Source: Candidatus Vogelbacteria bacterium CG10_big_fil_rev_8_21_14_0_10_51_16
GTDB lineage: Bacteria; Patescibacteriota; Minisyncoccia; Phycocordibacterales; JACRKE01
Length of the DNA: 46,489 nucleotides
Assembly: GCA_002774795.1 (NCBI GenBank)
Contig: PCYI01000001.1
Coordinates: 12,116-58,604, forward strand
Reading direction: 5' to 3'
This document shows, one piece after another, positions 2,560 to 44,106 of this stretch. Numbering within the stretch: the first letter of the stretch is position 1; each line of letters starts with the position of its first letter. Made by a program: the position numbers and the translations under genes. Under the pieces are notes generated by a model. It made no database searches. It was not told the DNA's origin and was given only the letters and a program-made list of their open reading frames with translations.

Positions 2560-3372
2560 ATGTCCATACAGTCACTACCTTCCGGTTCAGAACGAAAATC
2601 ATCAAAGGCTAGACAATCACCGCAAAGTACCTCATGGGGTGGGGTGGCTTCGTGGTACGAAGAGAGTGTAGAAAACCGTGAGTCATACCAAATGAAGGTG
2701 ATTCTCCCGCACTTACTTCGCCTTATGGCTCTGCAACCTCGTGAACAAGTACTAGACCTTGCTTGTGGCTCCGGTTTTTTCGCACATCGCTTCGCGGAAA
2801 CGGGCGCTAGTGTCACTGGCATTGATATAGCCCCGGAACTTATCGCTCTGGCTAAGCGCAAAGCCATTCATGGAGAAGAGTTTTTAGTGGCTCCCTCTGA
2901 CAGGCTCCCTTCCACCGACCAACGCTTTGCCAAAGTGGCAATAGTGCTCGCCCTCCAGAATATTCGCAATCTTGAAGCCACCCTCTTTGAGTGCCAGCGA
3001 GTACTGCAACCGATGGGTTCTCTATACTTAGTTCTAAACCACCCTGCCTTTCGTATCCCCAAAGAGAGCCGCTGGGGTTTTGATGTGGGGAGCAGTACTC
3101 AATATAGACGTCTGGATAGCTATCTTTCTGAATCACACACAGAGATCGCCATGGCCCCCAGCAAAGGAAAACTTTCGGAAACGACCATAAGCTTCCACCG
3201 CCCTCTGCAGGTGTACGTAAAAGCTCTGCGCAAATGTGGCTTCGCTGTCACCGGCCTCGAGGAGTGGATTTCGCACAAAAAGAGCGCGCTCGGACCACAC
3301 GCCAAGGCGGAGGACACCGCGAGAAAAGAGTTTCCGCTGTTTTTATACTTAGAAGCTATCAAGTTGCCTTAG
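2560..3372 (+). CDS. Class I SAM-dependent methyltransferase
   Basis: Motif I VLDLACGSGFF, then the acidic loop GIDIAPELI. Start taken at MSIQ (2560). Confidence 0.75.
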   Translation: MSIQSLPSGSERKSSKARQSPQSTSWGGVASWYEESVENRESYQMKVILPHLLRLMALQPREQVLDLACGSGFFAHRFAETGASVTGIDIAPELIALAKRKAIHGEEFLVAPSDRLPSTDQRFAKVAIVLALQNIRNLEATLFECQRVLQPMGSLYLVLNHPAFRIPKESRWGFDVGSSTQYRRLDSYLSESHTEIAMAPSKGKLSETTISFHRPLQVYVKALRKCGFAVTGLEEWISHKKSALGPHAKAEDTARKEFPLFLYLEAIKLP

Positions 3373-3987: not shown

Positions 3988-5424
3988 ATGGAGTTTTCGA
4001 TAGATAAAAAAGCACAAGGCGCTCTTGCTCGAGCCGGTATCTTGACCACTGGCCACGGGGTCATCAATACGCCCGCTTTTGTAACAGTCGGCACCAAGGC
4101 GACCGTGAAAGCCCTCACCCCAGAAGAGGTGGCCTCTCTGGGCGGAGAGGTGGTGCTCGCAAACACCTACCACCTATACCTCCAACCGGGCGACGAGCTT
4201 ATCTGCAAGTCGGGTGGTCTACATAAATTCATGAACTGGTATGGTCCCACCATGACCGACTCCGGCGGGTTCCAGGTATTCTCCCTTGGCGTAGCGCTTG
4301 GATCGGGAATCTCCAAACTCTCCAAGCCCTACGCCACGCAGATTACCGCAAATGTAGAGCGGATAGGCGCGGATAGAACCCCTCCACGCAATACCCTAAA
4401 AATATTCACAAATGAGCCCGCATCCAGTCCGCGTCAGTCGGCGTCTAGTCCGCAAATGTCCGTGGCGCACGATGGGCCAAAGTCCCTAGTGCGCATCGAT
4501 GAGGATGGCGTGACCTTTCGGTCTCACCTCGACGGCTCGAAGCATCTCTTTACGCCGGAGCGCTCGATGGAGATCCAGCACAATATCGGCGCCGATATCA
4601 TCTTTGCGTTCGACGAATGCACCTCCCCCACAGCATCCTATGACTACCAACGCGAAGCGATGGCCCGCACCCACCGTTGGGCAGAGCGCTCGCTCGCTCG
4701 CCACCGCGAGCTTGAAACAAGCGACCCCCTTCCATACACGCAAGCGTTATTCGGCATCGTACAAGGTGGCCGACACCGAGATTTGCGTGAAGAGAGCGCC
4801 CGTTTCATTGGCTCTCTTGCCTTTGACGGCTTCGGCATCGGTGGCTCTTTTGATAAGGCAGACATGGGAGACGCTGTCTCGTGGGTAAACAGACTCTTGC
4901 CTGAAGAAAAACCGAGACACCTTTTAGGTATCGGCGACCCGTGTGACCTTTTTTTGGCAGTCGAGAACGGTTGCGACCTCTTTGACTGTGTGGCCCCCAC
5001 CCGCCAAGCGCGCAATGGCTCTCTCTACACAGCACAAGGCCGCATCAATATCACGAACGCCCGCTATCGCACCGACCTTTCCCCTATCGACCCCACCTGC
5101 ACCTGTAGTGTTTGTACGGGTGGTATGCCCCATCCCCCGGCCGGGGGAGGGCTGGGGTGGGGTAGATCTTATGGTCCTAACCCATACCTTCCTTCGCAAA
5201 CTGCTTCACCAATCGGCATTAGCAAGATGTCCTACACCCGCGCCTACCTCGCCCACCTTTTTCGGGCCGAAGAGCTCCTCGCCTACCGCTTAGCCTCCAT
5301 CCACAACCTCCACTTTATTGTCAATCTGGTGAAAAAAATGCGCGCCTCACTTCTCAATGACACCTTCTTTAAGCTTAAAGAAGAGTTTCTGCAAACATAC
5401 GGCAATTCAACCACAAACCGATAG
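3988..5424 (+). CDS. tgt: Queuine tRNA-ribosyltransferase (tRNA-guanine transglycosylase) carrying two in-frame insertions
   Basis: MEFSIDKK...ARAGILTTGHGVINTPAFVTVGT, TDSGGFQVFSL, FAFDECTS, zinc motif CTCSVC...H, C-terminal IHNLHF. See findings for the insertions. Confidence 0.9.
   Translation: MEFSIDKKAQGALARAGILTTGHGVINTPAFVTVGTKATVKALTPEEVASLGGEVVLANTYHLYLQPGDELICKSGGLHKFMNWYGPTMTDSGGFQVFSLGVALGSGISKLSKPYATQITANVERIGADRTPPRNTLKIFTNEPASSPRQSASSPQMSVAHDGPKSLVRIDEDGVTFRSHLDGSKHLFTPERSMEIQHNIGADIIFAFDECTSPTASYDYQREAMARTHRWAERSLARHRELETSDPLPYTQALFGIVQGGRHRDLREESARFIGSLAFDGFGIGGSFDKADMGDAVSWVNRLLPEEKPRHLLGIGDPCDLFLAVENGCDLFDCVAPTRQARNGSLYTAQGRINITNARYRTDLSPIDPTCTCSVCTGGMPHPPAGGGLGWGRSYGPNPYLPSQTASPIGISKMSYTRAYLAHLFRAEELLAYRLASIHNLHFIVNLVKKMRASLLNDTFFKLKEEFLQTYGNSTTNR
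4404..4464 (+). repeat. Family D element (ATTCACAA head plus four GTCCGNN units spaced 10/11/10 bp) inside the tgt ORF, in frame
   Basis: Units start at 4427, 4437, 4448 and 4458. Alignable to the intergenic copy at 22478-22542; the four-unit array also matches 7346-7384. Confidence 0.65.
5128..5165. repeat. Family A palindrome core (reverse orientation) inside the tgt ORF, in frame
   Basis: CCCCATCCCCCGGCCGGGGGAGGGCTGGGGTGGGGTAG versus the reverse complement of the intergenic core, CCCCTCCCCCTGGCCAGGGGGAGGTTGGGAGGGGGTAG. Confidence 0.7.
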
Positions 5425-6804: not shown

Positions 6805-7225
6805 GGGAATCGTTTCTCCTTTCGGGGCGGGGCTTTTTCGGGGGGGTCTCCCTCAGCGTGCCCCGCCGTTCTTTCTCCGAAATTAGCCAACTCCTCCGTG
6901 CGTTTCTCTGACTCTCTATCCTTCCGACCGTTCGGCCGGTTTTTCTTCTCGCGAAATCCTCCTTTCGAAAAGTGGCGAGAAAGAAAACTAAGGGTTAGAG
7001 AAGACAGAAAACGCTTTGTTGTAGTACTTTTGTGAAAGAGCTATGTGGGCATTGGCCCACATAGCTCATTAGGAGCGAAGTGGGAATGTTTGCCTATCTG
7101 CTATAAACTTACACCTCTGCCATAAATGACGCAAGTCCCTTGCCCGTCTCTGTGGAAAAAATGTGGAAAACGAGTTGACAAACTCATGTAAATCTCCACG
7201 ACCGCACCACACGACCAGTGGTAAT

Positions 7226-7260
7226 CTACCCCCTCCAACTCCCCCTGGCCAGGGGGAGGG
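7226..7260. repeat. Family A palindrome core only (no terminal repeats)
   Basis: CTACCCCCTCCAACTCCCCCTGGCCAGGGGGAGGG. Confidence 0.7.
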
Positions 7261-7263
7261 CCT

Positions 7264-7302
7264 GAACAACAAAGAGCGGCCAAAAGCCGCTCTTTGTTGT
7301 TC
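7264..7302 (-). terminator. Hairpin GAACAACAAAGAGCGGC-caaaa-GCCGCTCTTTGTTGTTC (family F)
   Basis: 17-bp stem downstream of the YtxH-like gene. A near-identical hairpin lies at 8171-8205. Confidence 0.55.
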
Positions 7303-7345
7303 TTCCGCGTATAACTGCATAAAATCTACGCCGATCTGCAATTTC

Positions 7346-7384
7346 GTCCGCGTCCTGTCCGCGCTAATCCGCGTCTTGTCCGCG
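7346..7384 (+). repeat. Family D phased array: GTCCGCG x4 at 11/10/11-bp spacing
   Basis: Units start at 7346, 7357, 7367 (ATCCGCG) and 7378. The array abuts the stop codon of the 7386-7757 gene. Confidence 0.75.
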
Positions 7385-7385
7385 T

Positions 7386-7757
7386 CTACTTCTCCATACT
7401 CTTCCGGATGGCGGCCCAGTGCTTTTTCATATCGCGCACCATGGCTCGCACTTCATCTTTATCTACGTTTTTGAGATTCTCATACTTCTCACCCACCTTT
7501 TCCACGATGGCATCAAAGGTCTCTTTGTTCATCTCCTTCGCCTGCGCAAGACGCTCCATGACCTCCGCCTTAGCTTTCAGACCCCAGCTTCTGATTTTAT
7601 TTTTAGTCTTTGTATCTTGGCGCCCATAAACAAAAAGCGCTCCGGCCACCGCGGCCGCCGTAGCGGCCAAGGCAATAGCTCCCTTTTGTACTCCGCTTAG
7701 TTTTTTACTTGTCGACTTGCTGGCTGTCGTGACTTTTTTTGAGATTGATTTAGACAT
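7386..7757 (-). CDS. YtxH-like protein (N-terminal TM helix plus coiled coil)
   Basis: GAIALAATAAAVAGALFVYG helix, then a charged helical tail. Adjacent to a DUF948-like gene, as in Firmicutes (from memory). Confidence 0.55.
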   Translation of the reverse strand: MSKSISKKVTTASKSTSKKLSGVQKGAIALAATAAAVAGALFVYGRQDTKTKNKIRSWGLKAKAEVMERLAQAKEMNKETFDAIVEKVGEKYENLKNVDKDEVRAMVRDMKKHWAAIRKSMEK

Positions 7758-7767
7758 GGTGATGCAA

Positions 7768-7803
7768 GTTTTTAGTTTTTAGTTTGTAGTTTGTAGTTTG
7801 TAG
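7768..7803. repeat. Heptamer tandem repeat (AGTTTKT x5) immediately upstream of the YtxH-like start
   Basis: agtttttagtttttagtttgtagtttgtagtttgtag. In the gene orientation it reads (CTACAAA)3(CTAAAAA)2 and ends about 10 nt before the ATG. Confidence 0.8.
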
Positions 7804-7817
7804 TAAAACAGAGGTGG

Positions 7818-14062: not shown

Positions 14063-14153
<91 letters not shown>

Positions 14154-21149: not shown

Positions 21150-21448
21150 CTCACGTTTTTCGTGATGCTGTTTAATAAAAGAAAGAGTGCACGAAATACT
21201 CTTTGGTTTAAGAGGCTCTCCACAAGAAGCTTTTGCTGCTTGAATGAAGACCCCTATAGTGGCCACCTTCAGACCACTACTATTATCAGACCACTACTAT
21301 TAAGTGGAACGATTGCAAAACAGCCAAAACTCAATCGTGCAATGTTGATAACCAGTATAGTAAAATAGAGAAAGCTTGTCAACCACTTTTCCACTTGCAA
21401 TTCTAGAGAGCCAGCCTACTGGCTCCAGTCCCATTTTGGAAAAATGGA

Positions 21449-21610
21449 GTCTGTCGCCGAATAGACTTTCAAGCTAGTTTTCCCAAAGTGAGTGCGAGAC
21501 GAAGGTGAAAAAACGGAATAGTAGCTTAGCTACCATGAGTATTTTTCACCGAGTCGCAGCCGCACTTTGGGGAAAATAGTCGGAATGGATATTTGGTGAC
21601 AGGCCCAAAT
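21449..21610. repeat. Family C 162-bp rod-like structured repeat, copy 1 (just downstream of the trmD stop)
   Basis: Almost identical to 22929-23090. Nested inverted repeats run along the whole length. Confidence 0.85.
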
Positions 21611-21625
21611 GGGTCCGAGGATGAG

Positions 21626-22363
21626 TTATCGTCTCCTGCTTATCTTCCACTCCTCAATCTTTTTGGCATGTCCACTCAAGAGCACTTTTGGGACCTGGTA
21701 TTTCCTGCCTTGTTTACCCTGACCCGATGGTGGCCATTCAAACAGTTCCGGGCGAGTGTACACCTCGCTCGTTGACACTCTTCTCTCCTCCACCGACGCA
21801 TCTTTTCCAAGCACGCCAGAAATCTGTCGGGCAACTGCGTCAAGCATAATCATTGACGGCAACTCTCCCCCGGTGAGCACGTAGGGACCGACAGAGATCT
21901 CCTTTGCCCGCAAAACCTTTTTCACCCGCGCGTCAATCCCCTCGTAACGGCCACATATCAAAATAATGTCGGTCTGTTTTTTGGCCATTTTTCGCGCCAT
22001 TGTGTTTGTAAACTGCTCCCCCGCAGGAGCAAGTATGAAGGTTTGGAGTTTTGTGTTTTTGTGATTTGTGTTTTGTTTGGTTTTTGCCTGCCCGACTCGA
22101 ATGACCGAGTCGTTCGGGCGGGTGTTTTGAGCTTTGTGTTTTGCCACTTCTACGGCTCGCAAAAGTGGCTCTGCCAACATCACCATTCCCGGCCCGCCAC
22201 CGTACGGCCTCCCGTCTGTCTTGTGCCATTTATCCTTGGCAAAGTCGCGCGGATTATAGAACAGCACTGCTATCTTCCTTGCCTTAATGGCCCGCGCCAA
22301 AATCGAGTCGCCCAAATAGGACGTAAACAGCTTCGGAAAGGTGGTGATGATGTGGAAAGTCAT
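21626..22363 (-). CDS. trmD: tRNA (guanine37-N1)-methyltransferase with an in-frame repeat-derived insertion
   Basis: RPYGGGPGMVM, ICGRYEGIDARV, LTGGELPSMIMLDAV. Confidence 0.92.
   Translation of the reverse strand: MTFHIITTFPKLFTSYLGDSILARAIKARKIAVLFYNPRDFAKDKWHKTDGRPYGGGPGMVMLAEPLLRAVEVAKHKAQNTRPNDSVIRVGQAKTKQNTNHKNTKLQTFILAPAGEQFTNTMARKMAKKQTDIILICGRYEGIDARVKKVLRAKEISVGPYVLTGGELPSMIMLDAVARQISGVLGKDASVEERRVSTSEVYTRPELFEWPPSGQGKQGRKYQVPKVLLSGHAKKIEEWKISRRR
22042..22143. mobile_element. Family B element (CACAAA-rich arms plus CCCGAACGACTCGGTC hairpin) inside the trmD ORF, in frame
   Basis: The core cccgaacgactcggtcattcgagtcgggc (minus strand) matches 33932-33960. The ACTCCAAA / CACAAA motifs match intergenic copies. 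Confidence 0.7.
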
Positions 22364-22504: not shown

Positions 22505-22542
22505 GTCCGCGAGAGTCCGTTCCCTGTCCGCGTTAGTCGGTG
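22505..22542 (+). repeat. Family D phased array (GTCCGCG-type x4, spacing 10/11/10)
   Basis: Units start at 22505, 22515, 22526 and 22536, preceded by the same AATTCACAAT head as the tgt copy. Confidence 0.75.
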
Positions 22543-22897: not shown

Positions 22898-22928
22898 ACG
22901 GATTACTTTCTTATCTGCTACGAATAGG

Positions 22929-23090
22929 GTCTGTCGCCGAATAGACTTTCGAGCTAGTTTCCCCAAAGTGCGAGCGAGACGAAGGTGAAAAAACGGAATA
23001 GTAGCATAGCTACCATGAGTATTTTTCACCGAGTCGCAGTAGCACTTTGGGGAAAATAGTCGGAATGGATATTTGGTGACAGGCCCAAAT
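22929..23090. repeat. Family C 162-bp rod-like structured repeat, copy 2 (rpsP-KH spacer)
   Basis: See 21449-21610. Confidence 0.85.
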
Positions 23091-23137
23091 AGTAATGGCT
23101 TGCAGCCGAGCAGTTATACTGCAAGTTTATTATAACT

Positions 23138-23176
23138 ACAAAAAACACAAAACACAAATATCACAAAACTCCAAAG
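23138..23176. repeat. Family B fragment (CACAAA repeats plus ACTCCAAAG)
   Basis: acaaaaaacacaaaacacaaatatcacaaaactccaaag. Confidence 0.6.
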
Positions 23177-26159: not shown

Positions 26160-26186
26160 TCAGCCTCACTGCCATCTGCGTTGTAT

Positions 26187-26225
26187 CCTCCCTCTCCTGG
26201 CCAGGAGAGGGTAGGGTGAGGTGGG
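26187..26225. repeat. Family A second palindrome module (CCTCTCCTGGCCAGGAGAGGG plus TAGGGTGAGGTGGG)
   Basis: The same module recurs at 29647-29685 and, diverged, inside 43933-44106. Confidence 0.7.
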
Positions 26226-26256
26226 TCGTAAACCTACACCACCATACTTTCATTAG

Positions 26257-26321
26257 CTTTGAGTTACGAAATGCGCGTTTTTCCCTCCCCTGGCCAGGGG
26301 GAGGGGCTTCGTAATTCACAG
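26257..26321. mobile_element. Short (65 bp) family A MITE flanked by a perfect 7-bp target-site duplication TCATTAG
   Basis: TCATTAG at 26250-26256 and at 26322-26328. Terminal inverted repeats are CTTTGAGTTACGAAAT and CTTCGTAATTCACAG. Confidence 0.8.
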
Positions 26322-28537: not shown

Positions 28538-28542
28538 GGAAA

Positions 28543-28561
28543 GGCAGTAGGCAGTAGGCAG
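28543..28561. repeat. Heptamer array (GGCAGTA x2.5) ending 5 nt from the smc start codon
   Basis: In the gene orientation it reads TGCCTACTGCCTACTGCC-tttcc-ATG. Confidence 0.75.
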
Positions 28562-28646
28562 CCCAGACGCTTTGGTTGGGGTAAGCGGTAGAGAAGCCAG
28601 CCATTACATACAAGTATATCATTTAGAACGGGGAAAGATTTGTGTA

Positions 28647-28676
28647 TAAAAAAATGCGGCATTTGTATTCCGCATT
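28647..28676 (-). terminator. Intrinsic terminator downstream of rnc and of the MITE
   Basis: The minus strand reads AATGCGG-aatacaaatg-CCGCATT followed by TTTTTT. Confidence 0.6.
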
Positions 28677-28682
28677 CTCCTA

Positions 28683-28824
28683 CTGTGAGTTACGAAATTG
28701 CCCCTCCCCCTGGCCAGGGGGAGGTTGGGAGGGGGTAGGATGCAGAAATACGGCCCAAAATCTACCCCACCCTAGCCCTCCCCTGGCCAAGGGAGGGAAT
28801 AGGTCCGAATTTCGTAATTCAAAG
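28683..28824. mobile_element. Family A MITE (142 bp) with a 6/7 matching flanking 7-mer (TCTCCTA / TGTCCTA)
   Basis: Terminal repeats are CTGTGAGTTACGAAATT and AATTTCGTAATTCAAAG. There are two internal GC palindromes. Confidence 0.8.
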
Positions 28825-28827
28825 TGT

Positions 28828-28857
28828 CCTACTGCCTACTCACTACTCACTACTGCC
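28828..28857. repeat. Heptamer arm (CCTACTG-type), inverted relative to 28543-28561
   Basis: cctactgcctactcactactcactactgcc abuts the rnc stop region. Confidence 0.7.
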
Positions 28858-28862
28858 TGAGC

Positions 28863-29564: not shown

Positions 29565-29646
29565 ACTGTGTGAGCAGTGGACAGGTGGCAGATAGCATGA
29601 ATAATGCTCGCTACCAGCTACTAACTGCGAATGTTAGGATTTTAGT

Positions 29647-29732
29647 CCCCTCTCCTGGCCAGGAGAGGGTTAGGGTGAGGTGGGTTGCGGGAAGCCTACC
29701 CCCTCCCAACCTCCCCCTGGCTAGGGGGAGGA
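29647..29732. repeat. Family A palindrome modules (both cores, no terminal repeats)
   Basis: CCCCTCTCCTGGCCAGGAGAGGGTTAGGGTGAGGTGGG ... CTACCCCCTCCCAACCTCCCCCTGGCTAGGGGGAGG. Confidence 0.7.
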
Positions 29733-29751
29733 GCACTCACGGCAAACCAAT

Positions 29752-30693
29752 TTATGACTGCTGATAAATAAACGTAATCGCTTTAGTGATAATAGGCAAA
29801 ACGTCGTCGTAAATCTTGAGCGACTCCACCTCGTCAAGTTCGAACCAGCGAGCGTCGTCGAGGCCGGATGAGTCGACGTGGAGCTCGTTCTTCACCTTGG
29901 CTTTAAGGAGAAAGTACATCACCTGTCGACGTACCTTGCCAACCTTTGGGTCGTTCGCGATGTACTCGTTCGTGCCTAAAGTTATGCCGTCCGACTCCAC
30001 CGCAAGCCCCATTTCCTCCTTTGCCTTGCGTACGGCGGCCCCCTCAGGCTCCTCCCCCTCCTGCACGTGACCTTTAGAAAGAGTCCAATAGCCAAAGATG
30101 TCGTGAACGAAAGCAAGAGAGACACTCTCCCCTTCTCGCGCGTACACCACTCCACCGGCCACTTTTTCAATAAGCATCTCCTTAAGCTCATTCTCGCTGA
30201 AGTCGGACGGCTTATTCTGGCCGGGTTTCTTTTTTTTCTTGGCCACCCTATCCTCCTCTGGCTCTGCCTCCGGTCCGCCCATCTCGCGGTAGACTGTGCC
30301 GAGAACACCATTTACAAAGCGCCCCGACGACTCCCCGCCGAACGTCTTGGCGAGCTCAATCGCTTCATTGATTGCCACCCGAGACGGCACCTCTTTTTTA
30401 CTTGTAAACAAGAGCTCATAAAGACCGATGCGCAAAATGTTGCGATCTACAATGGAAATCTTATCAATAGGCCACTCCGGAGCGGCCTTCATGATAACAT
30501 CATCAAGTACCGACTGTTTTTCAAGGATTGTTTGAGTGAGTGTTTCTACAAAACTGCGGTCGTTCAATCCCGGGGCAAACTCTGCTATGTTGCGGTCTAT
30601 AATCTTACCCATCTCGGTCGCGGGTATGTCATTAAAATCGCGCTCAAAAAGAGACTGCATCACGATACTTCTGGAAAGGTGGCGATTGGCCAT
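29752..30693 (-). CDS. nusB: NusB (N-terminal) fused to a Nudix hydrolase domain (C-terminal)
   Basis: NusB-like: RSIVMQSLFERDF...VAINEAIELAKTFGGESSGRFVNGVLG. A Lys-rich linker follows. Nudix box: GHVQEGEEPEGAAVRKAKEEMGL. Confidence 0.8.
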   Translation of the reverse strand: MANRHLSRSIVMQSLFERDFNDIPATEMGKIIDRNIAEFAPGLNDRSFVETLTQTILEKQSVLDDVIMKAAPEWPIDKISIVDRNILRIGLYELLFTSKKEVPSRVAINEAIELAKTFGGESSGRFVNGVLGTVYREMGGPEAEPEEDRVAKKKKKPGQNKPSDFSENELKEMLIEKVAGGVVYAREGESVSLAFVHDIFGYWTLSKGHVQEGEEPEGAAVRKAKEEMGLAVESDGITLGTNEYIANDPKVGKVRRQVMYFLLKAKVKNELHVDSSGLDDARWFELDEVESLKIYDDVLPIITKAITFIYQQS

Positions 30694-31116: not shown

Positions 31117-31148
31117 AGCACAGAACACAGAACACAAAACTCCAAAAA
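31117..31148. repeat. Family B fragment ((CACAGAA)n ... ACTCCAAAA) upstream of rpmF
   Basis: agcacagaacacagaacacaaaactccaaaaa. Confidence 0.55.
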
Positions 31149-33924: not shown

Positions 33925-34068
33925 GCACCAGCCCGAACGACTCGGTCGTTCATGTCGGGCGGACAGAACCCCAAGTACGGTCGCAAAGCACAAAGTCCCA
34001 AAGCACAAGACTCCAAAGAATACAGATGCATTTTTTGAAGTTTTGTGTCATTTGTGCTTTGTGTTTTC
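33925..34068. mobile_element. Family B element (hairpin CCCGAACGACTCGGTCGTTCATGTCGGGC plus inverted CACAAAG-rich arms) in the dnaE 5-prime region
   Basis: The core matches the trmD-internal copy. The arms aaagcacaaagtcccaaagcacaagactccaaag and gaagttttgtgtcatttgtgctttgtgtttt are inverted. Confidence 0.7.
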
Positions 34069-34074
34069 TAAAAT

Positions 34075-37000
34075 ATGTCCTTCGTCCACCTCCACACCCA
34101 CTCCCACTACTCGCTCCTCGACGGCCTCTCCAAAGTGGACAAGCTCGTCCGCCAAGCTAAGGAGTTTGAAATGCCGGCCCTCGCCATCACCGACCACGGC
34201 AACATGTACGGGGCGATCGAGTTTTACATGACAGCCAAAAAAGAGGGGGTGAAGCCAATCCTTGGCCTCGAGGGTTATGTGGCCAATCGCACCCGCTTTG
34301 ACAAAGTGCCCGGGGTAGACAACAAGCGCTACCACATTACGTTGCTTGCCAAAAACTACACCGGCTACCAAAACCTGCTCGCCCTCGTCACCAAGTCCCA
34401 CCTCGAGGGCTTTTACTACAAGCCTCGCGTGGACAAAGACCTCCTGCGCGAGCACGCCGAGGGGCTAATCTGCCTATCCGGCTGTCTCGCTAGCGAGCTT
34501 GGCCGAGCCGTCAAAGCCCAAGACCGCGAGGAGGCCCTGCGCACCATTGATGAGTACCGCAACATCTTTGGCGACGATAACTACTTTCTCGAAGTCATGC
34601 ACCACGATAAAAACGAGGGGGTGATGGCCCAGAGGCGGGAGGTGATAGAGCTCGCCCGCAAGCTCTCGCTCCCGCTCGTGGCCACCCAAGACTCCCACTA
34701 CCTCTGTGCCGACGACCAAAAGGCCCACGACACACTCCTCTCTATCCAGACCGACGCCACCTCGGCCGATGCCAACAAGTTTAACTTCGGCGACGACGAC
34801 TACTCATTTATAGACACCGCGAAGGCATCCGAACACTTTGGGGATGTCCCCGAGGCGATTGCTAACACCCAGCGCATCGCCGATATGTGCGATGTGGAAA
34901 TTGAAATCGGCAAATTCATTTTCCCGGAATACCAGATCGAATCCGGCCGCTCTGCCGACGAAGAGTTGGGTGCTCTTGCCATGGCGGGCATTGAAAAGCG
35001 CGGCCTCACCGGTCGGGCCGACGTTCTCGAGCGCCTCGACTACGAGCTCGACATCATCAAGGGCAAACAGTACGCCGCCTACTTCCTTGTCGTGGAAGAC
35101 CTAATCCGCTACGCCGACGAGCATGGCATATACACGAACATCCGCGGTTCAGTGGCCGGAAGCATCACCACCTACCTCCTCGGTATCACCAAAGTGGACC
35201 CCATTGCGTATAAGATTCCTTTCGAACGCTTTTTAAACCCGGAGCGCCCCTCCGCGCCGGACATAGACATGGACTTCGCTGACAACCGACGCGAAGAGAT
35301 GCTCGACTACGCGAAGATCAAGTACGGCGCGGACAAGGTGGCCCAGATCGGTACCTTTGGTACCATGCTGGCTCGCGGCTCGGTGCGCGATGTCGCTCGC
35401 GCCCTCGGCTACCCTTACGGCGTGGGCGACCGCATCTCAAAGCTCATCCCCCTTGGTTCCCAGGGCTTCCCCATGACCATTGAGCGCGCCCTCGAGATGG
35501 AGCCGGAGTTGAAAAAAATTTACGACACAGAAAAGGACGCCAAGGAGATTCTCGACCTGGCCCGCAAGCTCGAAGGGTGTGTACGCCACGTCTCCGTGCA
35601 TGCCGCCGGGGTGGTCATCTCGCCTAAGCCGCTCGTCGAGTACACTCCCCTGCAGTACGACCCCAAGGGTGGCAAGATTATCACCCAGTACGACATGTAC
35701 ACCGTGGGCGAAGAGGGCATCGGTCTCACCAAGTTTGACTTTCTCGGCATTCGCAACCTCACTATCCTCGCCACAGCGGTGGCCCTCGTGCAAGAGCATC
35801 GCGACATCGCCCTTGATATCGAGGCCATCCCCATTGATGATGCCAAGACCTTTGCTATGCTCGCGCGAGGCGAGACCATGGGGCTCTTCCAACTAAATGG
35901 AGACGGTATGACTAAGTGGTTGACGGAGCTCAAGCCCTCAACCATTCATGACATTAACGCCATGGTGGCTCTTTACCGCCCGGGGCCGATGCAGTTTATC
36001 CCCGACTACATCAAACGCAAGCATCACCCTGAGCTCATCACTTATATGGATCCGGCTCTTGAGCCAATTTTGAGAGCGAGCTACGGCATCCTTGTTTACC
36101 AAGACGACCTGCTTATCATGGCCCACGACCTGGCCGGCTACTCATGGGGCGAGGTAGACAAGTTTAGAAAAGCGGTAGGCAAGAAAATCCCGGCCCTCAT
36201 GGCGGCCGAAAGAGAGAAGTTCATCAAAGGATGTGTTGCTCATTCGAAATGGCCACAACAAAAAGCAGAGGAGGTGTGGAACTGGCTGGAGCCCTTCGCC
36301 GCTTACGGCTTCAATAAAGCGCACTCGGCCTCTTATGGCCTCGTGGCCTATCAAACGAGCTACCTGAAAGCGAACTATCCGGCCGAATATATGACAGCTG
36401 TACTCACGGCGGAATCGGGCGACGTAGAGGAGGTGGCCCGCGTCATCGAAGAGTGCAAGAGAATGAAAATCCCCGTCCTCGCCCCCGATATCAACAAAAG
36501 CTTCGGCGACTTCACCGTCCTCAAGGCTAGTATAAAAACTGATAAGCGCGAAGCGCGGGATGAAATCAGCACGCGCGAAGCGCGGAAAGGAGGCTCGGAA
36601 ACGAATGCGGTTCTAAGCACAAGTATAGAAAAAACTGATACGCACGAAGTGCGAGATGAAATACGCTTCGGCCTCTACACCATCAAAAACCTCGGCAAGG
36701 AGATCGCCGACGCCATCATCGCTGAACGCACCGCAAACGGGCGCTTTGTCTCGTATGCGGACTTCCTAGACCGCGTGCATCATAAAAACTTAAACAAAAA
36801 ATCCCTTGAATCGCTTATTAAAGCGGGAGCGCTGGACGAGCTTGGCGAACGCGGAGAACTGCTTTTCAATCTGGACGATGCCCTTGATTACCATCGTGAG
36901 GGCATGAAGGAGACCAACCAGTCTTCGCTCTTCGGGCTCATGGAAGACACAAAGAGCGTCCCCACCCTTTCCCTGAAGCCTTGTGAGCCGGCCAAGATGA

Positions 37001-37613: not shown

Positions 37614-37660
37614 TTTGGAGTTTTGTGTTTTGTGCTTTGTGCTTTGTGCTTTGTGTTTTA
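37614..37660. repeat. Family B fragment (TTTGGAGTTTTGTG plus (CTTTGTG)n) upstream of thrS
   Basis: tttggagttttgtgttttgtgctttgtgctttgtgctttgtgtttt. Confidence 0.6.
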
Positions 37661-40203: not shown

Positions 40204-40226
40204 TACTCCTGCCTGGGCATACCTCC

Positions 40227-40346
40227 ATGAGTTCCGAAGACTTCTACAAATCCCTCCCCGCCCTCGAAAACTTCGGTGACGTGGCGGACTTTTCGCGGTA
40301 TGTGCCGGCGCCGAACGAGGTAGTTAAATGTATCTGGCACCCTTAA
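40227..40346 (+). pseudogene. Relic 5-prime fragment of a DUF3095-type gene (39 codons, then stop)
   Basis: 40227-40312 aligns with 41075-41160, about 75 of 86 positions identical by eye. Translation MSSEDFYKSLPALENFGDVADFSRYVPAP then diverges. Confidence 0.7.
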
Positions 40347-40398: not shown

Positions 40399-40650
40399 AT
40401 GATGAAAACCATCTCTACCACAGAGGCGCGTAAAAACTTGAGTGAACTTGTTTACGAGGTACAACGTACCGGCTCCACGGTGGGTATTATGCGTCACGGA
40501 AAATTGGAGGCCTACCTGTCCCCGGCCCCGACGTGGAACGAGGAGCTTTCAGATACCACTAATATGGTAACCATGGGAGGCGCTTTTGATTTTCTCCACG
40601 AGGAACCGGACAGATACACAGACGCGGACCTTATCGAACGCTATGCATAA
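40399..40650 (+). CDS. Type II antitoxin, Phd/YefM family
   Basis: MKTISTTEARKNLSELVYEVQRTGSTVGIMRHGK. The stop overlaps the toxin start (ATGCATAA). Confidence 0.8.
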   Translation: MMKTISTTEARKNLSELVYEVQRTGSTVGIMRHGKLEAYLSPAPTWNEELSDTTNMVTMGGAFDFLHEEPDRYTDADLIERYA

Positions 40651-40987
40651 GCAACCGCCCATGGGCACTGTAGTCTTGCTCCGTTTCCCTTTCACCGACC
40701 TGTCGGGAGCCAAGAGGCGACCGGCAGTGGTTGTCGGCCATGCCCACGGAGGAGACCTGGTGGTCGCGTGCGTGAGTTCTAAATATGAAACATGCGGTCC
40801 CTATGATGTTATAACAAAACAAGAAGAAAGCTCCTTTGCTCAAACCGGCCTTCACGCTACTTCTGTAATATGTGTCGATAAATTAGCCACTCTGCAACCT
40901 ACGATTGCCACCGGTAAACTTGGGGTTGTTTCCAGTAAACACTTTATAGAGATAAAGAAAAAGCTAAAAATGTTGTTCCGACTTTAG
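40643..40987 (+). CDS. Type II toxin, PemK/MazF-like
   Basis: GTVVLLRFPFTDLSGAKRRPAVVV...SVICVDKLATL. 114 aa. Confidence 0.75.
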   Translation: MHKQPPMGTVVLLRFPFTDLSGAKRRPAVVVGHAHGGDLVVACVSSKYETCGPYDVITKQEESSFAQTGLHATSVICVDKLATLQPTIATGKLGVVSSKHFIEIKKKLKMLFRL

Positions 40988-41045: not shown

Positions 41046-41074
41046 CTACTGCCCACTGCCTACTCCATACTGCC
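41046..41074 (+). repeat. Four CTACTGC-type heptamers abutting the DUF3095 start codon
   Basis: ctactgc ccactgc ctactcc atactgc c ATG. Confidence 0.7.
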
Positions 41075-42262
41075 ATGAATCCCGAAGACTTCTACAAATC
41101 CATCCCCGCTCTTGAAAAGTTCGCTGATGTAGCGGATTTTTCGAGGTATGTGCCGGCGCCAGACGACTGGTATGTGGTGGTGACCGATATTAAGGGCTCT
41201 ACTAAAGCGGTGGAGGCGGGAAAGTATAAAGAGGTGAACGCCGTGGGAGCGGCCTCCATCATCGCTGTCTTAAACGTGGCCAAGGAGGTGGACATCCCTT
41301 TTGTTTTCGGCGGAGACGGCGCCACCATGCTCATCCCGCCTACCCTTGTCGAAGCCACCAAAGGGGCGCTCGCCGCCGCCCGCGAACTCTCCCTCGACTA
41401 CTTCGAGCTTGAGCTACGAGTAGGGCTTGTGCCACTTACAAAGATTCCCCCCGAAAGTAAAATCCGCGTAGCCAAGTTTCGGGCTTCGCCCCACTACCAT
41501 CAAGCCATGTTTGCCGGAAACGGCGTGGTGATAGCCGAGAAACTCATTAAAGACCCGGCTACAAACACCCTGTACGAGGTGCCGGCCGACCACCCAAGCA
41601 GTGGGCAGTTTAGAGGTTTTGAGTGCCGTTGGAATGATATCGCCTCCCCGCACGGCGAGACGGTGGCGCTTTTGGTAAAAGTGGTTGCCGGCGACATCAA
41701 AGAGCGGGCCGCGCGTTACTGCGATATCCTCGCCGAGATCGAGCGTATCTACGGCAGTGAAGCCGACTACCACCCCATTACCGTCAAACATCTCACCCTT
41801 GTTACCCAACCGCCAAAACTAAACACTGAGACCTACATCCGCGCTGGGCGCAAAAGTGGCCGCAAAGGAGATCTTGAGCGCTTTTGGTATCGCACTAAAA
41901 TTTGGCTCACCGACCTTTATGTCAATCTCGCCATGCGCACTCCTTTCAGTAAAAACGACTTTAATTTGTCCGTTTACAAAAATCTGCTTGTGGCCACCTG
42001 CGACTTCCGTAAGTACGACGATGCCCTGCGCATGATTCTTGCCGGTACCCCCGCGCAACGCCGCGAGCTCGAAGAGTATCTAGAAGAGCTCCACCGTGAT
42101 GGCACGCTCGCTTACGGCACCTTCGCTACCGACCGGGCCCTCATGACCTGTCTCGTCTTCGAGCGCTATGGTAAACAGGTGCACTTCATAGACGGCGCCG
42201 ATGGTGGCTACACGCGAGCTTCAAAGCCATTTAAGGAAAGACTAAAAAAGCTGTCGGCATAA
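41075..42262 (+). CDS. DUF3095-family protein (N-terminal nucleotidyl-cyclase-like region)
   Basis: WYVVVTDIKGSTKAVEAGKYKEVNAVGAASIIAVLN...FVFGGDGATMLIP. The family assignment is from memory, not from a search. Confidence 0.5.
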   Translation: MNPEDFYKSIPALEKFADVADFSRYVPAPDDWYVVVTDIKGSTKAVEAGKYKEVNAVGAASIIAVLNVAKEVDIPFVFGGDGATMLIPPTLVEATKGALAAARELSLDYFELELRVGLVPLTKIPPESKIRVAKFRASPHYHQAMFAGNGVVIAEKLIKDPATNTLYEVPADHPSSGQFRGFECRWNDIASPHGETVALLVKVVAGDIKERAARYCDILAEIERIYGSEADYHPITVKHLTLVTQPPKLNTETYIRAGRKSGRKGDLERFWYRTKIWLTDLYVNLAMRTPFSKNDFNLSVYKNLLVATCDFRKYDDALRMILAGTPAQRRELEEYLEELHRDGTLAYGTFATDRALMTCLVFERYGKQVHFIDGADGGYTRASKPFKERLKKLSA

Positions 42263-43932: not shown

Positions 43933-44106
43933 CTTTGAGTTACGAAATGTGAGTTTTTCCCTCCCCTGGTCAGGGAAGGAGTTCCTCCCTCTCCTGCCCG
44001 AGGAGAGGGTTGGGGTGGGGTGGGAGGGGTGGGGTAGCTTTAGAGCCATACTACCCCCTCCCAACCTCCCCCTGGCCAGGGGGAGGGGCAATTTCGAAAT
44101 TCACAG
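43933..44106. mobile_element. Full-length (174 bp) family A MITE flanked by a perfect 7-bp target-site duplication TCTAAAT
   Basis: TCTAAAT at 43926-43932 and at 44107-44113. Terminal repeats are CTTTGAGTTACGAAAT and AATTTCGAAATTCACAG. There are three internal GC palindromes. Confidence 0.85.

Follow-up and report, generated by a model that had tools for sequence, protein, structure and literature searches.

The stretch of DNA analysed here (46,489 nt, hereafter the window) belongs to a genome bin of Candidatus Vogelbacteria and carries a tgt gene, encoding a queuine/preQ1 tRNA-ribosyltransferase, with two in-frame insertions. The ORF starts with an ATG at 3988 and ends with a stop at 5424, and its product of 478 aa is 100% identical to NCBI PIR45275.1 of Cand. 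Vogelbacteria. The features of the gene that are needed first are the following.

3988–5424, + strand: tgt, 478 aa, two in-frame insertions; assigned by PF01702 and a PDB Tgt match.
4291–4482, + strand: insert 1, 64 extra residues (aa 102–165) relative to Z. mobilis Tgt; the alignment breaks at query 101/166, corresponding to chain 111/112.
5098–5115, + strand: codons of the zinc ligands C371, C373, and C376 (C-x-C-x2-C), aligned to Z. mobilis C318/C320/C323 and invariant in 120 homologues.
5119–5232, + strand: insert 2, which places 37–38 additional residues after the last Cys ligand and ahead of the YTRAY (αE) helix, located by the clean break in the Z. mobilis alignment.
5302–5304, + strand: codon of the fourth zinc ligand, His439, an invariant column within SIHNL.

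The product matches PF01702 in 3 stretches (Pfam search, E=9e-134) and PDB Tgt with E=4e-93. Residues D91, D209, D333, C371, C373, C376, H439, Y420, and H423 are invariant among 120 homologues, and the SIHNL histidine (His439) is the counterpart of Z. mobilis H349. In the AF2 model, the core has a pLDDT >90 and superimposes on Z. mobilis Tgt (1q2r_A) with a TM of 0.94 and an rmsd of 1.8 Å. The window Tgt shares with Z. mobilis Tgt (PDB 1q2r and 1enu) the fold, the catalytic Asp, the Cys3His zinc site, and the Tyr/His cluster of the dimer interface, and differs from it by an extra 64-aa loop after the position of residue 111 and an extra 37-aa loop between C323 and W326. Alignment and model together suggest that the TIM barrel, the catalytic Asp, the four zinc ligands, and the dimer-interface aromatics (Y416, Y420, and H423) stay in place. 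Judged by its domain, its catalytic Asp, and its Cys3His site, in the alignment and in the predicted model, the host gene encodes a genuine Tgt, which is probably still functional with the insert. The description of an otherwise intact enzyme in the first-pass annotation is borne out by the PF01702 match and by the invariance of the catalytic and zinc residues.

Insert 1, which that annotation did not mention in describing tgt, occupies a loop whose length varies in all CPR Tgt proteins of the homologue alignment, and its predicted confidence is low (pLDDT about 33, AF2). It holds a 10-nt tandem repeat, CAGTCCGCGT x2.8, at 4425–4453, which is related to an intergenic repeat, GTCCGCGTCTT x3.9, at 7346–7387 (E=0.017).

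Insert 2 falls in the segment that links the third Cys ligand to the His ligand of the zinc site. The peptide reads C371-T-C373-S-V-C376, then TGGMPHPPAGGGLGWGRSYGPNPYLPSQTASPIGISKM, then SYTRAYLAHL. The alignment with Z. mobilis Tgt breaks after query residue 377 (chain 323) and restarts at query residue 416 (chain 325), so that the extra stretch comprises residues 378–415, nt 5119–5232. Counted against CPR orthologues in which the C-xx-YTRAY spacing is canonical, the net gain is 37 aa (111 nt). The ORF and the peptide are as first described, with about 37 residues between CTCSVC and SYTRAYLAHL and an open frame. In the AF2 model, insert 2 has a pLDDT of about 47–49 and zero secondary structure, and it is probably a disordered, Pro/Gly-rich loop. 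It is the sole case of its kind in the window, with no Pro/Gly-rich insert in the other genes. The RNA fold of the insert is of ordinary stability (z=-0.38), retaining only a small core hairpin. The predicted tryptic peptide SYGPNPYLPSQTASPIGISK lies wholly inside the insert. Since a zinc ligand and the dimer-interface helix are its immediate neighbours (10.1101/2020.09.01.277731), the insert may affect Tgt activity.

Repeats can mislead assemblers, and CPR bacteria are known for introns in their rRNA genes; the insert could on these grounds be an assembly chimera, or a segment missing from the mature protein because it is lost as an intron or intein or skipped by translational bypass. We regard this as highly improbable. 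The 1437-nt tgt sequence shows 0 differences among six assemblies from different samples and different assemblers (JGI, ENA with MEGAHIT and SPAdes contig names, and Logan). The six assemblies being independent, their identity indicates that the insert is not an assembly artefact, a possibility that had been raised for 5120–5230. No Rfam family, introns included, was found in the window. For an intein, 37 aa is far too short (an intein is expected to span about 130 aa or more, to start with Cys/Ser, and to finish with His-Asn), and the insert ends in SKM followed by Ser, with the terminal His-Asn missing.

Part of insert 2 resembles a repeat, family A, found elsewhere in the window. Family A is a dispersed, non-autonomous, REP/REPIN-like palindromic repeat that is abundant in the intergenic regions of this Vogelbacteria genome. 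Its half-unit of about 45 nt combines a 10–11-bp GC stem, with GGCC at its centre, and a G-rich tail that terminates in GGGGTAG. The stem-loop CCCTCCCCCTGGCCAGGGGGAGGG, with its 10–11-bp stem, occurs in all copies; GGGGTAG is kept in most of them, including the tgt copy, while a few have GTGG or GTTG. The GTAG is separated from the stem by the 10–14-nt G-rich tail. Most copies are head-to-head doublets of 93–126 nt, each of which is itself a long inverted repeat, and the GTAG ends face each other in all 25 non-redundant doublets. The window contains 10 near-full half-units, and all 9 that lie outside tgt are intergenic; 60 further half-units were found in loci of one sample. The copies in the window, including the one in tgt, are as follows.

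27–72, − strand: half-element, intergenic, 44 nt downstream of the stop of a DUF5667 gene (nhmmer E=1.1e-13).
5126–5169, + strand: half-element in tgt (hairpin and G-rich tail ending in GGGGTAG), read as MPHPPAGGGLGWGRS; detected by nhmmer, blastn, and inverted-repeat pair I7.
5134–5147, + strand: perfect 14-nt palindrome CCCCCGGCCGGGGG, the core hairpin, read from the sequence and retained in the RNA fold of the insert.
5170–5232, + strand: rest of insert 2, perhaps a decayed spacer and second doublet half, the insert length being within the doublet range.
7223–7262, − strand: half-element, intergenic, with no Pfam-supported gene over it (nhmmer E=2.5e-10).
26186–26306, + strand: half-element (26186–26228) and tail-less hairpin (26279–26306) between convergent RNase R and SMC-like genes (nhmmer E=8e-11 and 1.5e-5).
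28697–28801: head-to-head doublet, intergenic, made of 28697–28743 (+) and 28758–28801 (−) (nhmmer E=5e-14 and 2.6e-12).
29643–29735: head-to-head doublet between RNase III and NusB-NUDIX genes (nhmmer E=2e-12 and 1.3e-12).
43957–44092: hairpin and head-to-head doublet with an expanded GGGGT tail, between SDR and sortase genes (nhmmer E=5.2e-10 and 1.5e-13); TRF reports GGGGT x6 at 44007–44035.

As single-stranded DNA, the doublet at 28697–28801 folds into a long hairpin (z=-2.97), and its second half is the copy nearest to the one in tgt. Spurious ORFs built of family A occur nearby, for example at 28642–28860 of the window. No family A copy was detected at E<=1e-3 in the Tgt neighbourhoods of 84 other CPR genomes, the family A pattern had no match in viral contigs, and no Rfam family was found at the repeat, at insert 2, or elsewhere in the window.

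A profile built from nine intergenic family A copies, with the tgt copy left out, matches 5126–5169 over model positions 3–46 of 47 (nhmmer, 26.6 bits, E=1.8e-7 for the whole window), and this is the only full-length match in the window beyond the training set. In blastn, the tgt copy shows 83–86% identity to four intergenic copies over 42–49 nt (E 1e-7 to 6e-5), and in inverted-repeat pair I7 a 41-nt arm in tgt is 85% complementary to 28757–28797. The profile match and the complementary arm confirm the relationship noticed at first inspection, in which 5128–5165 was read as a relative of intergenic family A in reverse orientation. The family A origin of the insert holds for its first 44–52 nt or so and does not extend to 5170–5232, which matches neither family A nor any other part of the window significantly. 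A doublet HMM aligns 5125–5187, and the stretch up to 5187 is weak, with low posterior (CCTAACCCATAC against CCTACCCCCTCC). In total, 44–62 of the 111 inserted nt, about 40%, are traceable to family A. We also considered 5170–5235 as a decayed inverted half-unit; its alignments to five intergenic copies on both strands did not rise above shuffles (p=0.06–0.99). The 3′ part of the insert has either decayed past recognition or was never family A.

The insertion site was compared among 108 close homologues. One hundred of them, including the syntenic relative P0003, have a 2-residue spacing and no insert here, and the insert of the window is found in no close relative. Loops homologous to it across all orthologues, as had been considered initially, are therefore absent, and the distribution argues that the insertion in the window is derived. 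The remaining 8 homologues carry inserts at exactly this position, of 6–51 aa, with no common sequence, length, or predicted structure. Among them is the most similar homologue, P0002, with a 34-aa insert, and the insert of the window could accordingly be read as homologous to it, an old lineage-specific Tgt loop whose likeness to family A would be coincidental or convergent. The strings GGGGAGGGC and CCTAACCCA occur in both inserts, as do a few residues (PH, PNP, and ASP), but this similarity is not significant against shuffles (p=0.14), and the P0002 insert has no match to the family A model, whereas the window insert matches it over its full length. Moreover, the proteins group by core identity as (window,(P0002,P0003)), with values of 0.71, 0.70, and 0.75; with P0003 lacking an insert, a shared origin would require a precise loss. 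An old shared loop is thus a very improbable explanation.

The site is permissive: five other kinds of hairpin-bearing insert, with palindromes unrelated to family A, occupy the same Tgt position in other CPR lineages (L081, L083/L084, L137, and L025), and the palindrome of L084 has an 88% identical copy immediately downstream of its gene. These cases would fit the wider proposal that at least 4–5 unrelated hairpin elements have independently entered the loop just after the third zinc Cys, making it a true hot spot, and that palindromic repeats are a general source of protein insertions in CPR/Patescibacteria. We consider this proposal unlikely. The cause would be either a local DNA or replication feature that draws hairpin elements or some advantage to these organisms of having a flexible loop at the dimer/tRNA interface of Tgt, and in the latter case some Tgt loops would be functional and not passengers.

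Family A also occurs in frame within other Pfam domains, namely those of a cysteine desulfurase (two copies), NDH-2 (two copies), a SAM methyltransferase, and DinB. In the cysteine desulfurase, both copies lie in clean inserts relative to PDB homologues, and the insert is polymorphic in length, with a 14-aa in-frame indel between proteins that are otherwise identical. Three of the family A-bearing proteins have NCBI accessions from the same Vogelbacteria submission as Tgt, and the cysteine desulfurase, NDH-2, and methyltransferase copies appear to belong to the same genome as tgt; the DinB copy is on a contig from the same sample. At least three reading frames and both orientations are represented among the intragenic copies, which make up only about 10% of the copies seen.

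These copies bear on whether the Tgt loop is kept for a use, such as tuning of the homodimer interface, tRNA binding, or interaction with a partner. Exaptation of this kind, perhaps CPR-wide, is compatible with the identity of the tgt sequence in six assemblies and with the location of the site beside the aromatic dimer-interface cluster and the zinc subdomain that organises the dimer (10.1101/2020.09.01.277731). If it held in CPR generally, it would explain why inserts of differing sequence recur at exactly this site in several lineages. However, most of the homologues manage without an insert, and those inserts that exist have nothing in common in sequence, length, or predicted structure. 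The scattering of family A through unrelated enzymes, in several frames and both orientations, fits tolerated passengers, and the variable length of the cysteine desulfurase insert likewise argues against a selected loop. We consider exaptation improbable.

The same set of enzymes is relevant to the opposite reading, in which tgt would be a young pseudogene or a non-catalytic remnant with a frame that is open by chance. The gene does contain two large insertions, one of them beside a zinc ligand, and the queuosine pathway is often incomplete in CPR genomes. An open frame through a G/C-rich repeat is also a weak sign of selection, because 5 of the 6 frames of the half-unit are free of stops. 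On the other hand, every invariant residue of the catalytic, zinc, and interface sites is retained, both before the insert and in the 63 codons that follow it; the lengths of the two inserts are divisible by three, and the 1437 nt contain no stop or frameshift. The predicted core is of high confidence and close to the Z. mobilis structure, and other essential-looking enzymes, apparently of the same genome, carry family A likewise; it is unlikely that all of them are dead. A crippled Tgt is quite unlikely on this evidence.

How family A moves was addressed from the gene content and the repeat ends. Pfam scans of 36 ORFs found no transposase in the window. One Y1_Tnp ORF (motif scan, E=7e-9) is present on the family A-rich contig Ga0210057_1000141. 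Its visible flank carries a different palindrome, GTAAAGTTCAACTTTAC, and its other flank lies beyond the locus; no RAYT with family A flanks was found. Searches for a target-site duplication, a cognate or DDE transposase, and a parent IS with the same ends gave no result, and no presence/absence (empty-site) polymorphism of family A was seen among redundant contigs and loci. The sole indels among redundant contigs are in an unrelated GIY-YIG gene.

The explanation we favour, and consider likely, is that one copy of the dispersed REP/REPIN-like family A inserted in tgt and is carried there as a tolerated in-frame loop. Family A may be mobilised in trans, perhaps by a transposase of Y1/RAYT type, although this step is conjecture. 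The copy landed one to four codons past Cys376, just before the αE helix, in an orientation and frame that are free of stops. The insertion added 111 nt, and this being a multiple of three, the downstream frame was kept. On average, only about 1.5 of the 6 frames of a full doublet lack stops, which suggests that either a single half-unit and other DNA were inserted, or stops were purged later. The inserted DNA would be transcribed and then translated as a 37-aa Pro/Gly-rich loop, and it presumably persists because the loop tolerates extra residues, not through usefulness.

On this explanation, an event of the Rickettsia type, in which selfish palindromic DNA becomes peptide loops in core enzymes, would also have taken place in a streamlined, uncultivated CPR bacterium. 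It would give a specific source for some of the unusual insertions by which CPR proteins depart from their textbook homologues, and it indicates that a Tgt position next to a zinc ligand and the dimer-interface helix tolerates 6–51 extra residues. For annotation and structure prediction, it is a warning that what looks like a Pro/Gly-rich "loop" in a protein of a metagenome bin may be repeat DNA.

The situation had initially been likened to that of Rickettsia palindromic elements (RPE; Ogata et al. 2000, as reviewed in PMC10969869). The likeness stands as far as an in-frame repeat in tgt and other enzymes is concerned, and does not extend to membership of an RPE family. Both are dispersed palindromic repeats of about 100–150 bp that occur between genes and in frame in unrelated housekeeping genes of a small-genome bacterium; in both cases the ORF remains open and the fold of the protein apparently accommodates the insert. 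However, the two appear to have no sequence relationship, and the host of family A belongs to Patescibacteria/CPR. Family A is also set apart by the CGTC tag described for RPE: RPE end in CGTC (PMC3733652), whereas family A ends in GTAG, is very G+C-rich, and forms a nested hairpin. An RPE family encodes one conserved peptide in a fixed frame, whereas the peptides of family A differ by frame (PPAGGGLGWG, SPWPGGGWEGVG, SPLPSPVQERG, and others); read in several frames and both orientations, family A has no single conserved peptide. Its encoded loops are Pro/Gly-rich and predicted to be disordered, unlike those of RPE, and the intragenic share of the copies seen contrasts with nearly half in some RPE families.

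Small, non-autonomous, inverted-repeat-based elements of the MITE kind (ERIC, pneumococcal BOX, and cyanobacterial elements; PMC10969869, PMC3184786) are similar to family A in that they contain open frames, and the host ORFs that they lengthen or interrupt can stay active. They differ in the features that were looked for and not found for family A, namely a target-site duplication, a parent IS with the same ends, and a DDE transposase. With GTAG REP/REPIN/BIME sequences, family A shares a short GC-rich stem-loop, a high copy number, a position mostly just downstream of genes or between convergent genes, and an arrangement mainly as inverted dimers that are able to fold as a larger hairpin. 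Like family A, REPs have occasional copies in known genes, and different REPs are reported from about the same site of orthologous genes (recB of Xanthomonas; PMC3733652). In family A, however, the GTAG, kept in most copies, is not adjacent to the stem and lies at the end of the G-rich tail, 10–14 nt away, the half-unit of about 45 nt exceeds the 20–40 bp of typical REPs, and the phyla given for GTAG REPs exclude CPR (PMC3733652). By analogy with these systems, family A is best described as REP-like in build and as working like an RPE while standing outside the RPE families, and its insertion in tgt would represent an event of a known kind in a new lineage rather than a new kind of system.

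The window carries a core gene set typical of a candidate-phyla-radiation (CPR) bacterium (RpoD, DnaG, RpoB/C, TrmD, S16, RNase R, RNase III, NusB-NUDIX, L32, RNase HII, DnaE, and ThrRS). Its Tgt shares 100% identity with PIR45275.1, an NCBI entry that belongs to a Candidatus Vogelbacteria metagenome bin. Pfam TGT matches the protein with E=9e-134, split into three stretches, and the alignment to Zymomonas mobilis Tgt is interrupted by two clean breaks:

3988 (ATG) to 5424 (stop): tgt, 478 aa
4291-4482: insert 1, query residues 102-165, between Z. mobilis chain residues 111 and 112
5119-5232: insert 2, query residues 378-415, between Z. mobilis chain residues 323 and 325

For insert 2, the first-pass annotation gave both the peptide and the DNA correctly. 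The likeness of this DNA to an intergenic repeat, here called family A, is also real, as the complementary arm, the nhmmer profile, and blastn agree. In a repeat search of the window, 5130-5170 pairs with 28757-28797 (41 nt, 85% complementary). Nine intergenic half-units of the window were aligned into an nhmmer profile, with the tgt copy left out of training, and the window was searched. The tgt copy was the sole full-length match outside the training set (5126-5169, 26.6 bits, E=1.8e-7, model positions 3-46 of 47), and blastn against four family A copies gave 83-86% identity. The tgt gene contains an in-frame family A unit. The last 63 nt of insert 2 (5170-5232) showed no match to family A or elsewhere in the window.

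Family A is a dispersed repeat. Each half-unit of ~45 nt consists of a 10-11-bp GC stem with GGCC at its centre (CCCTCCCCCTGGCCAGGGGGAGGG) and a G-rich tail ending in GGGGTAG. The window contains 10 near-full half-units, and all 9 outside tgt are intergenic, most of them situated shortly after a stop codon or where two genes converge. Scanning metagenome contigs for the pattern gave 44 loci, the majority from the JGI sample that also contains the tgt contig, with 93 near-full half-units (60 in that sample); these are minimum figures, since the JGI tgt contig Ga0210057_1008682 contains the pattern but was missing from the result, and the scanned collection thus seems to lack the window's own contigs. 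In all 25 non-redundant doublets (93-126 nt) the GTAG ends point towards each other, separated by 4-37 nt, and one intergenic doublet folds into a long single-strand hairpin (z=-2.97). Searches for family A in 84 Tgt loci of other CPR genomes and in viral contigs gave no match. Two window ORFs of 72 and 90 aa, 28642-28860 (+) and 7069-7341 (-), are largely family A DNA and probably spurious; ORFs derived from family A could end up annotated as hypothetical proteins.

All 111 nt of the insertion may have come from one doublet whose second half decayed, because the size falls within the doublet range and a doublet HMM extends weakly to 5187. Two points speak against such an origin: one half would be well preserved but the other unrecognisable, and a full doublet has only ~1.5 of its 6 frames open.

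Of the 108 closest scorable homologues, 100 have exactly two residues separating the last Cys from the (Y/F)TRAY helix. The two nearest relatives, P0002 and P0003, share the gene order of the window (sigma factor, DUF5667, methyltransferase, tgt, MGMT-like gene). P0003 has no insert at the insert 2 site; P0002 has one of 34 aa, which neither resembles insert 2 significantly (p=0.14) nor matches the family A model. Core identity is 0.75 between P0002 and P0003, and 0.71 and 0.70 from the window to P0002 and P0003, respectively. Given the dissimilar inserts and the closer relationship of P0002 and P0003 to each other, independent gain in the window and P0002 is the simpler reading of these sequences. 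The first-pass annotation had raised the possibility of an assembly artefact. This is ruled out, since six contigs that differ in sample and assembler carry the same tgt sequence, with 0 differences over 1437 nt, and the insertion is genuine.

The host enzyme is otherwise intact, as had been claimed. Residues D91, D209, and D333 are the counterparts of the Z. mobilis catalytic D102, D156, and D280, and the zinc ligands (C371, C373, C376, H439) and interface residues (Y420, H423) are present; all nine positions are invariant across 120 aligned homologues. The AlphaFold2 model made from this alignment has pLDDT >90 for 320 residues and superposes on 1q2r_A with a TM of 0.94 and an rmsd of 1.8 Å. 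Neither insert 1 (pLDDT ~33) nor insert 2 (pLDDT ~47-49) has predicted secondary structure. The insertion point of insert 2 is structurally delicate because it lies between the equivalents of Z. mobilis C323 and W326, at the dimer-interface helix. W326 begins helix αE and forms with Y330 and H333 an aromatic cluster of the functional homodimer, whose interface is organised by the zinc subdomain itself (10.1101/2020.09.01.277731). Translation of the insert 2 DNA would give a Pro/Gly-rich loop without fixed structure, the enzyme would still be active, and the insert may persist since it is tolerated.

Insert 1, 64 aa relative to Z. mobilis and predicted to be disordered, occupies a loop of variable length across all CPR Tgt. 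It holds a 10-nt tandem repeat, CAGTCCGCGT x2.8 (4425-4453), whose period is not a multiple of three and which resembles the intergenic 11-nt repeat GTCCGCGTCTT x3.9 (blastn 81% over 36 nt, E=0.017); the places for comparison are 7346-7387 and 22515-22538.

The insert 2 site is occupied recurrently. Between 7 and 51 extra residues stand at this position in 8 of the 108 homologues, and every insert examined at the DNA level in other CPR Tgt has its own palindrome:

L081: GGCGTCCGGACGCC
L083 (2336-2494) and L084: GGGGACTGnCCCT...AGGGTCTGTCCCC; in L084 at 2310-2356, 2735-2827 and 3040-3080
L137 (4021-4077): AAGGTCGGACCTT...AAGGTCCGACCTT
L025 (4072-4095): insert of 18 nt, including CCCCGCCAAGGCGGGG

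The L084 palindrome has an 88% identical copy just downstream of tgt and another in-frame copy at a second site inside it. The recurrent use by unrelated elements is most simply explained by a permissive loop that filters insertions; a mutational hot spot may be an alternative. In P0041 and P0100, Tgt carries additional inserts close to the helix that follows the RWA motif, e.g., NSKFQISNKFQIPNFKF.

Family A copies also lie in other long ORFs with strong Pfam support:

cysteine desulfurase, two copies
NDH-2 type oxidoreductase, two copies
SAM-dependent methyltransferase, one copy
DinB, one copy

Three of the proteins are PIR44463, PIR44740, and PIR45078, deposited in the Candidatus Vogelbacteria submission that also contains Tgt, two of them with COV10_ locus tags; from accession names and numbers, we infer that they belong to the same genome. 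The contig that encodes the DinB comes from the same sample. Of the 70 half-units seen, at least 7 lie within genes and in frame, a minimum from a biased sample, and they are read in several frames and both orientations. A half-unit is stop-free in 5 of 6 frames, the sixth being closed by the TAG of GTAG. In the desulfurase (L112:6392-7858 (+), proteins P0121 and P0122, attributed to the same Vogelbacteria bin), both in-frame copies lie within clean inserts relative to solved homologues. A variant, otherwise 100% identical, has a 14-aa in-frame deletion (GGVGEVGWERWDGR) within the G-rich tail. The deletion reflects a polymorphism in length or a collapse during assembly, and suggests that loops encoded by family A can vary in length.

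The window contains other repeats and segments. Many short intergenic heptamer tandem repeats (TAGGCAG, AGTTTGT, TTTGTGC, ACACAAA, and complements) recur beside gene ends throughout:

heptamer tandem repeats: 14063-14093, 28542-28561, 28828-28858, 41047-41076; 7767-7804; 37622-37659; 22048-22143; 23138-23169; 31119-31140; 34042-34064

A 168-nt direct repeat (21443-21610 and 22923-23090, 95% identical), with inverted arms at 22919-22980 and 23033-23094, flanks the trmD/KH-domain gene region, and metagenome locus L130 (12874-13038) has an 89-91% identical copy. A 101-nt direct repeat (40218-40318 and 41066-41166, 85% identical) brackets a MazF/PemK-like toxin gene (40586-40987). In DnaE, the helix-hairpin-helix region takes up 128 residues versus 85 profile positions; its charged extra segment (~36532-36672, residues ~820-866), with the internal repeat REARDEI ... 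HEVRDEI, may be another lineage-specific insertion. One ORF at 29752-30693 (-) joins a NusB domain (residues 7-136) to a NUDIX hydrolase domain (residues 179-293).

The comparison with Rickettsia palindromic elements (RPE) drawn in the first-pass annotation is apt in behaviour, as RPE are likewise palindromic repeats carried in frame inside protein genes (PMC10969869). Family A is not an RPE: its tag is GTAG rather than CGTC, it has no fixed encoded peptide, its sequence is unrelated, and its host is different. The closest anatomy is that of GTAG-tagged REPs and their inverted dimers (PMC3733652), from which family A differs in that its GTAG stands 10-14 nt from the stem and no REP-associated Y1 transposase (RAYT) flanked by family A was found. 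Pfam scans of the window ORFs detected no transposase. The one Y1_Tnp gene on a family A-rich contig is neighboured by a different palindrome:

L109:12759-13406 (-): IS200-like Y1 transposase ORF on contig Ga0210057_1000141 (PF01797, E=7e-9; motifs NHFHFL and YIHCNP), running off the locus end

The inverted repeat GTAAAGTTCAACTTTAC/GTAAAGTTGAACTTTAC lies directly past its stop. Family A fits the GTAG-REP/REPIN description in most features, the RAYT link being putative. Our limited literature search found no earlier report of such an element for CPR. Intragenic REPs have been reported, in some cases with different REPs lying at roughly the same position in orthologous genes (PMC3733652), as seen here for family A and the other repeats at the common site in tgt. 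New here are the occurrence in a CPR host, an insertion point adjoining a zinc ligand and the dimer helix, and the repeated occupation of this point.
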